Shown here one piece after another: positions 21,178 to 27,736 of a DNA stretch of 55,065 nt (positions are counted from its first letter, which is position 1; each line of letters begins with the position of its first letter). The stretch spans positions 1-55,065 of the forward strand of contig CAUGFN010000002.1 of the NCBI GenBank assembly GCA_959598745.1, given 5' to 3'. This DNA is from an uncultured Eubacteriales bacterium (GTDB lineage: Bacteria; Bacillota; Clostridia; TANB77; UBA1234). The notes beneath the pieces are model-generated. The model had not been told where the DNA came from and searched no databases. It saw nothing but the letters and a program-made list of their open reading frames with translations. A program made the translations under genes and the position numbers.

Positions 21178-21289
21178 AGTATGTCCTCCTAGTAATATTT
21201 TAACATTTGAAGTATTTTTTAACAATAGGAATTAAATATTAAGTAAATTTTAGAAATAACAAAAACTTACAAAAAAATCACGAAAAGTA

Positions 21290-21318
21290 TTTACAAAAAA
21301 AACCAAAGGTGGTAATAT
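21290..21318 (+). promoter_or_regulatory. Promoter module P1 (toxin gene), TG-extended -10
   Basis: TTTACA (21290-21295), 17 nt, tgg-TAATAT (21313-21318). The same module recurs at 24404, 25282 and 26464. Confidence 0.6.
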
Positions 21319-21380
21319 AGTGGCGACTAAAAGTCAAACGCACAACCCAATAAATAATTTAATGGAAAGGATGTAACAAA

Positions 21381-23690
21381 ATGAAACGGCTTTTGTCAAT
21401 CATCTTGGTAGTATCGATGCTTTTCGGTATGGTGCAGGTGCCTGTAACGGCAAACGATGGACCTGGTAATTCCTCCGAACGTAGCGATGATGCAGACTTT
21501 GGAGACGAAGGACCTAGCGACATGTCTGAAACTGGTACAGATGAAGATAACGGACCTGCCGATATGTCAGAAACAAGTATAGATGAAGATAACGGACCTG
21601 CCGATATGTCAGAAACGAGTTCGAATGAAGATAATGGACCTGCTGACATGTCAACAGAAGAAAGTTTTAACTGCACTCATGAACGGACTAGGAAAGCGTA
21701 CCACGAAACAAAGTACGAAAAGTACAATTCTGAAAAGCATAGCTACAAGGAAACGTACGAAATAGTATGTAAAGATTGTGGAAAAGTTCTTAGTGCAGAG
21801 AAAACAGAGAGTGGCAAAGAAGTACATCGCTTCAGAAGAGGAAAATGTGCTGATTGCGACTACGTGATTAAAAACTGCAATCACGAAGAGACAGTAGAAA
21901 AAGTCACGTACTGGAGAACGGAAGAGGATGAGCAAGGAAACGATAAAAGTTTCACATTGGTTGATGTGGTTTGCAAGCTCTGTGATGAGAAAATTACGGA
22001 AAAAACTTACTACGGACCAATAATAGCAGTCCCTGAAGATTCTTGGTGCAACCACGATGAGTTAAATGAAATAGTAGAAGAAGAGTATTATGAACCGTTG
22101 GACGAAAAATCACATTACAAAGTACAAAAGTGCAAAGTAAAGTGTGACGACTGTGGCATATTACTCAAAGAGTACAAAACAGAAGAAAAAGAAGAACATA
22201 GCATAGCAAATGGCAAGTGCACGAAGTGTATTTACGAAAAGAAAACAACGAGTGCACAGGAAAACAAGAAGGACAACAAGGAAACTGGCAAAAATCAAAG
22301 TAATCAGAACAAGAACATAGGAACAAGTCAGAAGAAAGAAATAATCGACTGGATATACATCGATGCAGAACAAAGTAAATTTGCAGTAGATGGCGATGCA
22401 GTGGATTGGGACAGTACACCAATTCTTGACCCGAATGGAAACTTACAAGTACCATTAAGACAGCTTGCTGAACTTATGGGCTGGGATGTTACGTGGGATG
22501 CAGAGAATGAATGTGCAACAGTGACAAAAGGCAACGTAAAAAAGATATTCTCCAATAATTCTGATGAGTATATAGTCGAGGAAGGCAATGCAGTATATTA
22601 CGAGTTTCTGCAGAACAAAGTTACAAGCAAAAACGGAGTATTGTATGTTGACCTTGACGGCGTACTTGATAGTACTGGTTATAGTTACTACATAAATGGT
22701 ACTTCTTATCACATAAAAGGTGTACAAGAGGTAATTGATAAAGTAGTATCGAGCCAGATTTGGGGAAACTATGAAGTTGTAGCATCTAGAGAAGTACTTG
22801 ATGAAGTAAACTACGAAGTAGAAGTAAAGTCTGATGAGATGCTTGTTACTCTTGTACCTGCAAGAGAAAGCTACTTTTATACGATAATTGTTCCTGCTAC
22901 AAACGAGTCATTAAAAGGTAACTATTATGACGGTGATGTGACCTGGACAGGAATAGCAGGAGAAATAATAGTAGGTGAGTTGCCGATAGTAGGGCAAATA
23001 GCAGACATAAGAGATATAGTAGCAGACATTCAAAATTGGGAGTGGTCGTGGTCACATGTGGCACAAACAGCACTTGATAGTGTTGGTTTAATCCCAATTG
23101 TTGGTGCATTAAAGTATTCAGATGACTTAATGACTACTGCACGAAAAACAGGTAAGGTGCTAGACGCTAGTGAAGCTGCAGATGTGCGAAAAGTCTTAAA
23201 AGAAGCGGACAAAGTAGATGATGCAACTGAAATTGGCGAAAAAGCACTAAAAAATTTAGATGATTACAACGATGCAACAAAAGGACTTGTTAAAAATTCC
23301 GATGAGATTGCTGACACAACGAAAGTCGCTAAAAAAACTTCCAAAGCAAGTTCGAAAACACTGGCAAGAAATCTTGAGAAAAGTGGCTTTAAGAGACCTG
23401 ATAATTATAAGTCTGCAGCACATCACATAGTGGCAGGTAATGACAAGAGAGCAGCAAAATCTCGTGAAATTTTGGAAAGCTTTGAAATAAACATAAATGA
23501 TGCATCGAATGGGGTTTTCCTTCCGACCGAAAAAGGAGTGAGCAAGGCAATATATCATCCTGCTCTAAATACTGACAGATACAATAAAAATGTTTATGAG
23601 ATGTTAGTAAGAGCCCAAAGCAGGGAAGAGGCTATTGTAGTATTAGAAAAAATACGGGATATGCTATTGAATGGGACTTTTGGATATTAG
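21381..23690 (+). CDS. Sec-secreted polymorphic toxin: signal peptide, acidic repeats, Cys-rich modules, copper-amine-oxidase-N-like domain, PT-TG pre-toxin domain, C-terminal AHH (HNH/EndoVII superfamily) nuclease
   Basis: MKRLLSIILVVSMLFGMVQVPVTA signal. VPLRQLAELMGWDVTWDAENECATVTKG (Cu_amine_oxidN1-like). ELPIVGQIADIRDIV...DSVGLIPIVGALK (PT-TG-like). SAAHHIVAGND...NGVFLP...YH (AHH motif at 23418-23426). An immunity gene follows 6 nt later. Confidence 0.8.
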   Translation: MKRLLSIILVVSMLFGMVQVPVTANDGPGNSSERSDDADFGDEGPSDMSETGTDEDNGPADMSETSIDEDNGPADMSETSSNEDNGPADMSTEESFNCTHERTRKAYHETKYEKYNSEKHSYKETYEIVCKDCGKVLSAEKTESGKEVHRFRRGKCADCDYVIKNCNHEETVEKVTYWRTEEDEQGNDKSFTLVDVVCKLCDEKITEKTYYGPIIAVPEDSWCNHDELNEIVEEEYYEPLDEKSHYKVQKCKVKCDDCGILLKEYKTEEKEEHSIANGKCTKCIYEKKTTSAQENKKDNKETGKNQSNQNKNIGTSQKKEIIDWIYIDAEQSKFAVDGDAVDWDSTPILDPNGNLQVPLRQLAELMGWDVTWDAENECATVTKGNVKKIFSNNSDEYIVEEGNAVYYEFLQNKVTSKNGVLYVDLDGVLDSTGYSYYINGTSYHIKGVQEVIDKVVSSQIWGNYEVVASREVLDEVNYEVEVKSDEMLVTLVPARESYFYTIIVPATNESLKGNYYDGDVTWTGIAGEIIVGELPIVGQIADIRDIVADIQNWEWSWSHVAQTALDSVGLIPIVGALKYSDDLMTTARKTGKVLDASEAADVRKVLKEADKVDDATEIGEKALKNLDDYNDATKGLVKNSDEIADTTKVAKKTSKASSKTLARNLEKSGFKRPDNYKSAAHHIVAGNDKRAAKSREILESFEININDASNGVFLPTEKGVSKAIYHPALNTDRYNKNVYEMLVRAQSREEAIVVLEKIRDMLLNGTFGY
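21510..21653 (+). repeat. In-frame 42-bp tandem repeat, 3.4 copies (GP[SA]DMSET..DEDN)
   Basis: Units at 21510-21551, 21552-21593 and 21594-21635, plus a partial unit at 21636-21653. All lie inside the toxin CDS. Confidence 0.9.
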
Positions 23691-23696
23691 GAGTGA

Positions 23697-26492: not shown

Positions 26493-26591
26493 AAAGACGA
26501 CTGAAATCAAACACGTAAATTGCATAAATAATTTATAGGAGGGATTATAACGGAAACTAAGTGCGAAGTAGAAGTAGATGAAAGCGGTTTT

Positions 26592-26906
26592 ATGCATTTG
26601 AAAATCGAAAAGAATGAACATATAACTGGTTATGTTGGAAACATTGCTGGTTGGTTAGAAGCTGATGTTCAATGTTCTGGAAGAAGATATCTTTCAAAAA
26701 TTAAAAAGATTTTGAAAAGTTCTATTCTTTTTAAAGAAGAGATTTTTACTGGTAATGCATATGAGGCACATGTAAAAAGAGACTATACCACAATATCATA
26801 TGACTTTGAAGAAGAATGGCCAGAAATGGTTCCTTGCACTTTGCCAACACAAATGTTATATGAGATTCTTGAACTTTGGATAAATGCATGTGATGAACAT
26901 AGTTGA
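26592..26906 (+). CDS. Immunity-like family B, paralog 3 (N-terminus uncertain)
   Basis: The track ORF starts at an internal ATG. Homology to paralog 1 continues upstream in frame to ATA 26547, which lies 4 nt after GGAGG, the same spacing as the ATG of paralog 1. Confidence 0.5.
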   Translation: MHLKIEKNEHITGYVGNIAGWLEADVQCSGRRYLSKIKKILKSSILFKEEIFTGNAYEAHVKRDYTTISYDFEEEWPEMVPCTLPTQMLYEILELWINACDEHS

Positions 26907-27020
26907 AGTGCTAAATTGATTTTCAACGAGAAAATACAGAAGTGGCAATACAAAAGACCGATGGCTAAGCAGACCATAGATGATACAAAACAAAAAATAA
27001 AAAGAAAAAAGTAAGCGATA

Positions 27021-27644
27021 TTGACGTTGAGAAAATACGCAATACGCTACTGGAAGGAAAATTTAAGTATTGAGGGGGAATTTTGTACGAAAATTTGGGA
27101 AATTGATGCAGTAGCTGAAAGATATGACAGTTTAAGACCGGAAAATGGTTATACGTATGAAGAAATGATGTCTTTTGACGGCAGAAGCCATAAAAACGAT
27201 TGGACACCTAGGAAAGTAGTGCCGAACATTAATCCTAAGAAGAATCCTAAGTTTGGTGATCGTTCCGAATGTATGGGAGTGTTGGTATTTAGTCAAAAAG
27301 CAATTGAGAAGTTGTATGATTTGATAAAAGACGACGTTGAAATTTTGCCTCTTGAGTGCGACTATGGAGAATTTTCTATAATAAACGTAACAACAATTCT
27401 AGATGCTATTGACCATGAAAATTCGGAGTATGAATACATTGAAGGAACGAGAAAAATAATGTATTTCAAAAAGTATGTCTTTTTTGAGGACGTTGTAAAA
27501 GGACATGACATTTTTACAATTATCGATAAGAAATGTACTTACTCTTTTGTTTCTGACAGATTTGTACAGACAGTGGAGCGAAGCAAACTAAAAGGATTCC
27601 GCTTTGAACTCGCATGGGATAGCGAAGCTCCTACTACTATTTAA
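27021..27644 (+). CDS. Orphan Imm11-like immunity paralog (start uncertain)
   Basis: Its leader and N-terminal half are almost identical to 24504..25127, the central part diverges, and the conserved tail matches. Confidence 0.6.
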   Translation: MTLRKYAIRYWKENLSIEGEFCTKIWEIDAVAERYDSLRPENGYTYEEMMSFDGRSHKNDWTPRKVVPNINPKKNPKFGDRSECMGVLVFSQKAIEKLYDLIKDDVEILPLECDYGEFSIINVTTILDAIDHENSEYEYIEGTRKIMYFKKYVFFEDVVKGHDIFTIIDKKCTYSFVSDRFVQTVERSKLKGFRFELAWDSEAPTTI

Positions 27645-27736
27645 GAATTGACAAACAAAACTGAATAATTTCAAAAAGCCAAACAACAAGTCAAGGATAT
27701 CTGCACTATTACAGATACACCTTGGCTTGATTTTTT
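27564..27736 (+). repeat. Cassette 3' module copy 4 (right edge of the island)
   Basis: Same conserved tail and terminator sequence. Composition returns to low GC immediately afterwards. Confidence 0.85.

Follow-up and report, generated by a model that had tools for sequence, protein, structure and literature searches.

What kind of system lies between the cls and cca genes of an uncultured Eubacteriales bacterium (GTDB lineage Bacteria; Bacillota; Clostridia; TANB77; UBA1234), where a gene for a 769-residue protein is followed by a run of small genes, several of which resemble one another? The DNA in question is a stretch of 55,065 nucleotides (GenBank assembly GCA_959598745.1, contig CAUGFN010000002.1, positions 1 to 55,065 of the forward strand), analysed as a whole and referred to here as the window. 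A sequence-only reading of it had proposed a polymorphic toxin, a cognate immunity gene and five orphan immunity cassettes. This core is supported by hidden Markov model (HMM) searches and, more strongly, by comparison across the bacterial population. It is very probable that the region is a variable toxin/immunity locus at a fixed cls–cca site, encoding an exported, modular nuclease toxin together with an archive of immunity genes.

The placement between cls and cca was borne out by Pfam matches on both flanks. On the left is cls, on the minus strand, with two PLDc_2 domains; on the right is cca, with a PolyA_pol head domain and an RNA-binding domain. The toxin, its tip and its partner are as follows.

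21381–23690, plus strand: polymorphic toxin gene, 769 aa (open reading frame (ORF); Pfam Cu_amine_oxidN1 and AHH; 34 homologues with alternative C-termini).
23301–23687, plus strand: exchangeable AHH (HNH/EndoVII) nuclease tip, aa 641–769 (identity breakpoint; Pfam match at 23394–23630).
23697–24260, plus strand: cognate immunity gene Imm11-1, directly after the toxin (Pfam Imm11, E 4.7e-10).

The AHH nuclease domain (PF14412), which the sequence-only reading had named, was found at aa 672–750 with E 1e-12 and 48.5 bits against a cut-off of 22.3. Its motif is intact (A680-H681-H682, N710 and Y725-H726) and is conserved in all AHH alleles. The signature residues tabulated for the family, [AG]HH, N, H, H and Y (PMC3482391), are present in the window toxin, and the tip is predicted to be a nuclease toxin. 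An AGGAG sequence is located at the toxin stop codon, before Imm11-1, which begins at ATG 23697 or, by homology, at GTG 23703; this agrees with the Shine–Dalgarno-coupled immunity gene that had been proposed. The Imm11 profile (PF07791) was matched above its cut-off of 22.1 bits by three genes of the locus (39.5, 34.9 and 46.2 bits), the alignment covering only the C-terminal half of the profile (positions ~107–190 of 194). Imm11-1 is a distinct subtype, 57–62% identical to all the other copies.

A protein search gave 34 close homologues of the toxin, all from gut metagenomes or metagenome-assembled genomes (MAGs); the exact sequence of the window toxin is not on record elsewhere. The alleles of the window's species belong to an uncultured species of human-gut Clostridia, and the host names among the sister contigs are 'Clostridiales bacterium UBA4698' and Hadza MAGs. 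In these same-species alleles aa 1–330 are more than 93% identical, whereas the C-terminal tips are divergent or unrelated: AHH subtypes (about 60–74% identical to that of the window), EndoU (PF14436), or a frameshifted AHH, as in allele P0004, where the remainder can be read in another frame. This combination of a conserved N-terminus with variable tips is that of a polymorphic toxin, as are an immunity gene that lies directly downstream and co-varies with the tip, and an orphan or polyimmunity content that differs by strain, with toxin-tail remnants present. All of these were observed.

The comparison of the cls–cca junction in related strains, suggested with the sequence-only reading, showed the same site with variable cassette content. 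In the window's species the locus is always at cls–cca, and variable downstream content was seen there in the sister loci L001–L009, L011, L013 and L014. From one to seven immunity genes are carried, depending on the strain. Thus L001 and L002 have an EndoU toxin followed by a 122-aa gene, two Imm11 genes, a 104-aa gene and another Imm11 gene; L004–L006 have a frameshifted toxin and one Imm11 gene; and L007 has an AHH toxin, three Imm11 genes, three members of a second family (family 2) and a further Imm11 gene.

When the window was aligned with these strains, DNA identity was about 95–100% through cls and into the 5′ portion of the toxin gene and then fell sharply to 50–70% at about 22500 (L001), 22700 (L007) or 23300 (L009 and L004). 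Against L009 the fall at about 23300 is from about 100% to 58–73%. Identity recovers to 95% at about 24200, at the conserved end of the immunity gene. These sharp breakpoints and the recovery indicate that the exchanged unit is the toxin tip together with most of the immunity gene. Homologous recombination would bring about the exchange, with the conserved toxin body as the upstream homology arm; downstream, the arm would be formed by the terminator and the ~100 nt before it with which the immunity gene ends and which are conserved.

These swaps bear directly on whether the locus is a weapon at all. Viewed in isolation, the window shows merely a nuclease and inhibitor-like genes, and secreted nucleases with inhibitors exist, so that a nutritional or biofilm nuclease with self-protection, an anti-phage system or a host-directed effector might be envisaged. 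DNase/RNase tip swaps with matching immunity changes, together with immunity arrays, are however the signature of polymorphic toxins (PMC3482391), and neither a PADLOC defence match nor phage relatives of the locus were found. A function other than interbacterial conflict is, therefore, extremely improbable.

Some other arrangements were noted among the sister loci. In L004, L005, L006 and L013 (e.g. L004 12044–12416; protein P0004), and in at least eight contigs altogether, GCA_002404755.1 among them, the toxin is frameshifted inside AHH but a single Imm11 gene is kept. Strains with this form of the locus would be immune without producing the toxin ('immune non-producer' strains). One Hadza MAG has a second, paralogous toxin and Imm11 locus, 50% identical, on another contig (L016, CAKPEV010000008.1, compared with L014, CAKPEV010000003.1). 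In a related species (L012, L015) there are two full toxins in tandem, EndoU with family 2 and then AHH with Imm11, with orphan stubs on both sides. In L024, L025 and L026 (about 5700–11300) the toxin locus is not at cls–cca; it is found between the second RNase J gene and a gene for a MiaB-like radical-SAM protein, a neighbouring but different insertion point in the same syntenic block.

The partner of each tip was determined from a tblastn map of the fetched loci. At every locus examined an AHH tip is followed by Imm11 and an EndoU tip, whether intact or a fragment, by family 2. The pairing holds in three lineages, and extends to classic orphan pairs of an EndoU fragment and family 2 in L024 and L015. 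The lineages are the window's species (L001–3, L014), a second one in which toxin loci stand in tandem (L012, L015) and a third (L024–L026), in which L025 and L026 have one EndoU/family-2 pair and L024 has one pair and two orphan 'EndoU fragment + family 2' cassettes. In the window family 2 is represented by three mutually alignable ORFs, in agreement with the three members of a second small family that had been read there.

25399–25833, plus strand: family-2 orphan 1, 144 aa, GGAGG then ATG (alignments; near-identical copy in L007 and L014).
25811–26236, plus strand: family-2 orphan 2, start codon ATA instead of ATG (98% identical to the EndoU cognate of L014, which follows an intact allele).
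26547–26906, plus strand: family-2 orphan 3, 104 aa, ATG at 26592, homologous frame back to 26547 without a canonical start (80% identical to the EndoU cognate of L012).

The L014 cognate has ATG where orphan 2 has ATA. The internal-Met form of orphan 3 can be regarded as native because the L012 cognate starts at the same Met.

Family 2 comprises 34 clusters, none of which is named or has a Pfam domain (all 34 have an empty entry in the precomputed Pfam annotation), and no Pfam, NCBIfam, PADLOC or relevant Protein Data Bank (PDB) sequence match was obtained. Its assignment to a known immunity family or fold was therefore rejected. The AlphaFold 2 model of orphan 1 (predicted local distance difference test (pLDDT) score 82, predicted template modelling (TM) score 0.75) has a beta-beta-alpha-beta4-alpha topology; Foldseek gave weak similarity to PUR-alpha repeats (E about 1e-2, TM score at most 0.46) and found no immunity protein. 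The known EndoU immunity families are Imm-SUKH, Imm-SuFu and Imm28 (PMC3482391), and no HMM or structural match to these or to others was found. Family 2 resembles them in coming directly after the EndoU tip, in its small and cytoplasmic products and in its tandem arrays, but differs in being a small family with no sequence relative in Pfam, NCBIfam or the PDB. As it follows every EndoU tip and has no such relative, family 2 is probably an unnamed family of EndoU immunity proteins, to judge by position and co-variation.

The organisation of the downstream cassettes was then apparent from the repeats within the island, which go far beyond chance. The island consists of four punctuated units, each with an 83-nt promoter-like start (repeat D5) and a 188-nt end element (repeat D1).

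21250–21332, plus strand: promoter-like/leader repeat copy 1, upstream of the toxin, TTTACA-17 nt-TAATAT with upstream TG, hexamers at 21290–21318 (D5; consensus match).
24161–24348, plus strand: cassette end copy 1, last ~100 nt of Imm11 and terminator-like hairpin (D1; ΔG −23.9 kcal/mol, z-score −3.9).
24364–24446, plus strand: promoter-like repeat copy 2, TTTACG-17 nt-TAATAT (D5; sequence read).
25028–25215, plus strand: cassette end copy 2, Imm11 3′ end and terminator-like hairpin (D1, 91% identical; ΔG −26.6 kcal/mol, z −4.4).
25242–25324, plus strand: promoter-like repeat copy 3, TTTACA-17 nt-TAGTAT with TG (D5 and D7; promoter scan).
26201–26388, plus strand: cassette end copy 3, terminator-like hairpin (D1, 67% identical; ΔG −22.7 kcal/mol, z −3.5).
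26268–26300, plus strand: remnant of a deleted Imm11 gene, its final 33 nt (AWDSEAPTTI then stop), within D1 copy 3 and after family-2 orphan 2 (sequence read).
26424–26506, plus strand: promoter-like repeat copy 4, TTTACA-17 nt-TAACAT with TG (D5, 80% identical; promoter scan).
27545–27732, plus strand: cassette end copy 4, Imm11 3′ end and hairpin, right border of the locus (D1, 93% identical; ΔG −21.7 kcal/mol, z −4.5).

The four D1 copies, starting at 24161, 25028, 26201 and 27545, are 67–93% identical and contain the last ~100 nt of Imm11 (ending in FRFELAWDSEAPTTI and a stop codon), a long hairpin (ΔG −22 to −27 kcal/mol, z −3.5 to −4.5) and a U-tract. It is at copy 1 that identity to L007 is back at 95%. 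The four D5 copies, starting at 21250, 24364, 25242 and 26424, share hexamers of the type TTTACA-17 nt-TAATAT with TG upstream, a pattern consistent with a promoter and leader; no Rfam regulatory RNA was matched in this repeated leader at E≤1. The cassette hairpins were also weighed as attC-like sites of an integron, a reading that was dropped because there are no integrase and no R′/R″ core motifs and every cassette has its own promoter-like element.

A third repeat, D9, is the 3′ end of the toxin gene, present in three copies in the island. Two of these are stubs of ~20 codons, one upstream of each orphan Imm11 gene; these orphans are the two further paralogues of the immunity gene that had been read in the sequence.

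24491–24556, plus strand: toxin 3′ end remnant 1, KVSDIDVEKIRNMLLEGKFEY then stop (D9).
24546–25127, plus strand: orphan immunity gene Imm11-2, 193 aa, TTG start overlapping the toxin remnant, ORF from 24504 (Pfam Imm11, E 1.3e-8).
27005–27073, plus strand: toxin 3′ end remnant 2, KKVSDIDVEKIRNTLLEGKFKY then stop (D9; translation).
27021–27644, plus strand: orphan immunity gene Imm11-3, homologous core 27087–27644 (Pfam Imm11, E 4.4e-12).

Remnant 1 ends in the same 13 residues as the AHH alleles P0003 and P0005. Imm11-2 shares 98% identity with L007_Ib and 85% with the P0003 cognate; in L007, where the P0003 toxin is intact, the cognate behind it has the same TTG arrangement. Imm11-3 is 96–97% identical to orphans of L001 and 91% identical to the cognates of P0003 and P0004; it has TTA where the P0003 cognate has its toxin-overlapping TTG start, and only upstream TTG codons remain, at 27021 and 27027. 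These matches suggest that both Imm11 orphans of the window descend from a P0003-type AHH allele, while the three family-2 orphans would be the immunity partners of EndoU alleles.

Two side observations concern these repeats. A 15–17-codon ORF (MAKQTIDDTKQKIKR[KK] then stop) is kept in both copies of the 300-nt repeat D3, at 24444–24491 and 26961–27014, just upstream of the toxin stubs; it could be a leader peptide or a remnant of something else. Divergence between the Imm11 paralogues is concentrated in codons 97–165 (synonymous divergence dS 1.9, nonsynonymous divergence dN 0.27), e.g. 24858–25064 compared with 27375–27581, while hardly any difference is left in the first 96 codons or in the last 20 (dN at most 0.013). 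Such a distribution suggests gene conversion, or mosaic recombination, around a segment that determines specificity.

The orphans might be decaying relics of past allele replacements with no present function. Starts have been lost at the homologous position in family-2 copies 2 (ATA) and 3 and in Imm11-3 (TTA), a single Imm11 gene has been reduced to the 33 nt listed above, and the toxin tails have been reduced to short stubs. All five orphan frames are intact, however, and dN/dS is 0.08–0.29 for Imm11-2 and 0.13–0.24 for Imm11-3 (0.08–0.29 for the orphan Imm11 genes overall, including orthologous orphans compared between strains). These genes are therefore kept under constraint at the protein level. 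The same 'defective' starts recur from strain to strain. Cognate genes after intact toxins also show both the internal Met start of family-2 copy 3 and a TTG start that overlaps the toxin, as in Imm11-2. Every cassette retains its promoter-like element and terminator. Decay without function is thus rather improbable.

A role mainly as a recombination reservoir for toxin switching, as with the orphan modules of contact-dependent inhibition (CDI) and Rhs systems, rather than as a protective archive, was considered at the same point. Repeated homology arms flank every cassette, the breakpoints coincide with the arms, and L024 and L015 carry orphan EndoU or AHH fragments along with immunity genes. 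The orphans of the window have no usable toxin domain, and recombination within this array could, for this reason, alter the immunity content but could not install a new tip. A reservoir as the main function seems just as doubtful as decay.

The favoured explanation is that of a protective archive. The producer would be protected from its own toxin by the translationally coupled Imm11-1 directly downstream. Immunity genes that are displaced or acquired would pile up downstream, each cassette with its own promoter-like element and terminator, and together the orphans would shield the strain from the toxin variants that other strains in the same population produce.

Several observations weigh against this explanation. 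Three of the five orphans (the family-2 copies 2 and 3 and Imm11-3) have no canonical start at the homologous position, so that some may be poorly translated or untranslated. With at most ~20 toxin codons, the orphans cannot regenerate new toxins in the window strain. Promoter-like matches are not enriched across the region (35 found, compared with 24.9 ± 5.2 in shuffled sequences). The AHH/Imm11-1 allele pair of the window was found in no other sample, and its specificity cannot be cross-checked. Finally, the confidence of the structural model is low over the pre-toxin region described below (pLDDT <50), and the role of the module found there is, for that reason, a guess.

How the toxin would leave the producer and reach its target was approached through the region before the tip. 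From the N-terminus the protein appears to be arranged as a Sec signal, acidic disordered repeats, Cys/His beta modules and Cu_amine_oxidN1, a pre-toxin module and then the AHH tip.

21381–21452, plus strand: Sec-type signal peptide, aa 1–24, MKR / hydrophobic core / VTA–N (read from sequence).
21453–21668, plus strand: acidic disordered region, three tandem 14-aa repeats, DEDNGPADMSETS (repeat family D8; pLDDT <35).
21669–22235, plus strand: three Cys/His-rich beta modules (C-x-H ... CxxC ... H ... CxxC), aa 97–285 (invariant Cys/His columns; no family model).
22386–22703, plus strand: Cu_amine_oxidN1 domain, aa 336–441 (Pfam E 1.8e-13).
22893–23180, plus strand: pre-toxin module, aa 505–600 (exhaustive HMMER family; not PT-TG).

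The signal-peptide-like segment, MKRLLSIILVVSMLFGMVQVPVTA, is the sole strongly hydrophobic 19-residue window of the toxin, and aa 2–16 are modelled as a helix followed by disorder; export through Sec is predicted. The D8 repeats have a DNA period of 42 nt at 21500–21653. Within an N-terminus that otherwise differs little between alleles, the acidic block (aa 25–96) varies most, with 53–100% identity over aa 26–100. Allele lengths range from 755 to 789 aa, which, with the variability of this block, suggests that the number of repeats differs between strains.

Module 1 of the Cys/His-rich region is modelled as a beta-sheet (pLDDT 82–89), and Pfam returns merely a sub-threshold zinc-ribbon match for these modules. 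The Cu_amine_oxidN1 domain (PF07833) scored 50.8 bits against a cut-off of 24.2, and the top PDB fold match of this region is the E. coli copper amine oxidase (E 7e-4, probability 1.00). The model of the full-length toxin is poor overall (pLDDT 56.6) and a fold search with it confirmed the copper amine oxidase N-domain alone. OspA and SasG-like folds for the Cys-rich modules were set aside as the fold matches were not significant. The Cys/His-rich modules and Cu_amine_oxidN1 probably serve in target or surface binding.

In the sequence-only reading the toxin was delivered by Sec export plus cell-surface association through the copper-amine-oxidase-like domain. The first part is backed by the signal segment; for surface anchoring by Cu_amine_oxidN1 no evidence was obtained in either direction. 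Such anchoring would make the toxin a contact weapon, staying on the producer's wall by means of Cu_amine_oxidN1 and the Cys-rich region and passed to neighbours on contact, like WapA. Cu_amine_oxidN1 is found in many extracellular proteins of Firmicutes, for example at the Paenibacillus loci L017–L023; the Cys-rich modules are modelled as extended beta-sheets with a non-significant likeness to the adhesin stalks SasG/Aap and to OspA; and some carriers of the pre-toxin module have the wall-binding domains PG_binding_1 or SH3_3. On the other hand, neither an LPXTG motif nor an SLH, CWB2 or LysM domain was matched in the toxin, and Pfam and a hydrophobicity scan gave no membrane or wall anchor beyond the signal peptide. 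The adhesin fold matches have probabilities of only 0.08–0.15, and a part for Cu_amine_oxidN1 as a wall anchor, or as a delivery domain of polymorphic toxins, is not described in the literature searched. A contact weapon is accordingly possible but unlikely. With no anchor and no wall-binding domain, and with the precedent of S8-PTS, a diffusible Sec-dependent polymorphic toxin of Firmicutes (PMC9424270, PMC13556192), a secreted toxin is favoured. It would be tripartite, like a colicin, with a binding region, a pre-toxin or entry module and a nuclease, and would be diffusible or loosely associated with the wall.

The segment at aa 505–600 had been described as PT-TG-like. No match to PT-TG (PF14449) was seen in the full protein or in the isolated segment at E≤10, in a search made without a positive control for PF14449, nor at E≤10 in eight diverse carriers of the module, and PT-TG is absent from the 25 families listed for 105 carriers. 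With no model in Pfam or NCBIfam matching the module, the PT-TG identity was rejected.

The segment is, nevertheless, a real and widespread pre-toxin module, different from PT-TG and unmodelled by Pfam, with the consensus GNYTDxDVTxLGTxGQI...PADIRD...NWEWSWxHxGQTxLD..GLxPxxGxLKYxDE. A word-indexed search with the segment alone gave three fragments, and family size was therefore taken from exhaustive HMMER with aa 505–600 as the query, which gave 541 representative clusters at E≤1e-3. The distance from the module to the C-terminus, taken over 148 carriers, has a median of 125 residues (interquartile range 82–170). According to Pfam annotation of 105 carriers, the tips that follow it include EndoU, RNase A-like CdiA-CT, WHH, LHH, AHH, colicin DNase, colicin E5, barnase-like, NucA-like, deaminase and Ntox10, and the regions that precede it include RHS repeats, PT-HINT, PG_binding_1, SH3_3 and Cu_amine_oxidN1. 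In Rhs carriers it comes after the DPxGL motif. The public names of the carriers are 'RHS repeat-associated protein' or 'hypothetical' and nothing else. The module is insufficiently hydrophobic for a membrane anchor, and it probably serves release or entry.

A bolder proposal can be made tentatively: that the Sec-exported toxins of this locus are an undescribed delivery class of gut Clostridia, their delivery region being made up of the acidic repeats, the three Cys/His-rich beta modules and Cu_amine_oxidN1, that the 'NWEWSW' module, with at least 541 clusters at 50% identity and common to Rhs, HINT and wall-binding toxins, is a general device for release or membrane entry, and that family 2 is a new, PUR-like fold for EndoU immunity. 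This reading is possible but unlikely.

The setting of the locus was examined for signs of another secretion system or of recent arrival. The other large ORFs of the window and those of 10 kb on each side in the sister contigs are housekeeping genes, and no genes for a type VII secretion system (T7SS), Rhs, S8 peptidase or MafA-like proteins were found among them, as the sequence-only reading, which had noted no T7SS/LXG or Rhs context, would have it. The toxin has a signal peptide in place of any LXG or WXG match in Pfam, no Ess or Esx genes are nearby, and the FtsK homologue of the window has a gamma domain and hence is not EssC. There is no RHS_repeat match in the window protein, and no Peptidase_S8 gene is adjacent among the large ORFs of the window or the 10-kb flanks of the sister loci, which sets the toxin apart from Rhs/WapA and S8-PTS respectively.

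No PADLOC defence system was matched. The plasmid matches are limited to the AHH domain at 36–44% identity, and neither tRNA genes in the window nor an integrase among the neighbours were found; with no phage match either, a mobile-element origin was rejected. A different base composition had also been claimed. The shift exists (GC content 39% in the toxin gene and 35.3% in the island, against a window mean of 31.4%, standard deviation 3.8) but it is modest and weak, and the housekeeping gene at 15599–17299 has 40% GC, so that the value for the toxin gene is not unique in the window. Horizontal acquisition was therefore not argued from GC content. The locus is a fixed chromosomal site of the species and not a recently inserted island.

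Two neighbouring genes deserve mention. All sister contigs share a gene of the Phage_holin_4_2 family that lies ~7 kb upstream of the toxin (in the window at about 13930–14300, minus strand, by synteny with L001 2549–2917). In addition, cca is split by one extra C right after the H-D of its HD motif (window 28645–28672; ALVHDL, then R and stop, as against ..GKAKTP in the +1 frame), giving ORFs at 27857–28665 and 28637/28652–29074. The same extra base is present in L001, L007, L014 and a more distant UBA4698 MAG (L004; cca about 87% identical as protein), and the downstream 144-aa frame is intact in these and in the window. It is not a sequencing error; it could reflect a programmed +1 frameshift (a rare CGG codon, then UAA), a CCA enzyme that is truly made in two pieces, or a pseudogene of long standing.

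Few experiments have been done on the polymorphic toxin systems of Gram-positive anaerobes in the gut. The locus offers a natural experiment: at a single site of a single uncultured species the tip is either a DNase or an RNase, the archives mirror the alleles found in the same human-gut populations, Hadza samples included, and frameshifted-toxin strains retain their immunity gene. It also yields a putative, unnamed immunity family for bacterial EndoU toxins and a recombination design in which the 3′ end of the immunity gene and the terminator would serve as the downstream homology arm, while a module missing from Pfam and NCBIfam could improve the annotation of toxins in Rhs and HINT proteins. 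The catalogue of such systems is thereby extended; nothing in current understanding is overturned.

Precedents have been described for AHH–Imm11 pairs, for polyimmunity loci of Imm11 and for Sec-dependent toxins whose N-terminal domains are specific to a lineage (Zhang et al. 2012, PMC3482391), and AHH/Imm11 toxicity and cross-immunity have been shown experimentally in M. xanthus, with AHH–Imm11 pairs of type VI secretion system (T6SS) and SitA toxins (PMC12077181). The window has the same families (PF14412/PF07791, DUF1629), with immunity directly downstream, extra tandem Imm11 paralogues and divergent subtypes between which cross-immunity is possible. It differs in having a Sec signal and a lineage-specific N-terminus, not T6SS, outer-membrane exchange, T7SS or Rhs, in its host, a Gram-positive uncultured gut Clostridia species, and in an array that mixes Imm11 with a second, unnamed family.

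MafB of Neisseria is likewise a Sec-dependent polymorphic toxin with a lineage-specific N-terminal domain (PMC4287609, PMC3482391), and S8-PTS has the architecture signal peptide-BetaH-toxin with an S8 peptidase (PMC9424270, PMC13556192). A signal peptide, a conserved lineage-specific domain, an exchangeable nuclease tip with EndoU among the alternatives, an immunity gene and downstream orphans are common to these systems and the present one. The present locus, in contrast, has neither a MafA partner nor an S8 peptidase gene, the N-terminus is made up of Cys/His beta modules and Cu_amine_oxidN1, and the pre-toxin module is a different one, common to Rhs and HINT toxins.

With WapA/WapI of B. 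subtilis and the Rhs and CDI orphan loci it shares a Gram-positive nuclease toxin, here predicted to be exported by Sec, with a polymorphic C-terminus, the accumulation of displaced cassettes downstream and recombination at conserved junctions; its pre-toxin module is also found in Rhs carriers, after DPxGL. It differs in that the toxin has no RHS/YD repeats, that the orphans keep their immunity genes but only ~20 toxin codons, and that the downstream homology arm is inside the 3′ end of the immunity gene. The locus is, therefore, a lineage-specific variant of a well-known kind of system. Four of its features appear to be new: the architecture of the N-terminus, the pre-toxin module for which no model exists, family 2 with its link to EndoU, and the design of the cassettes.

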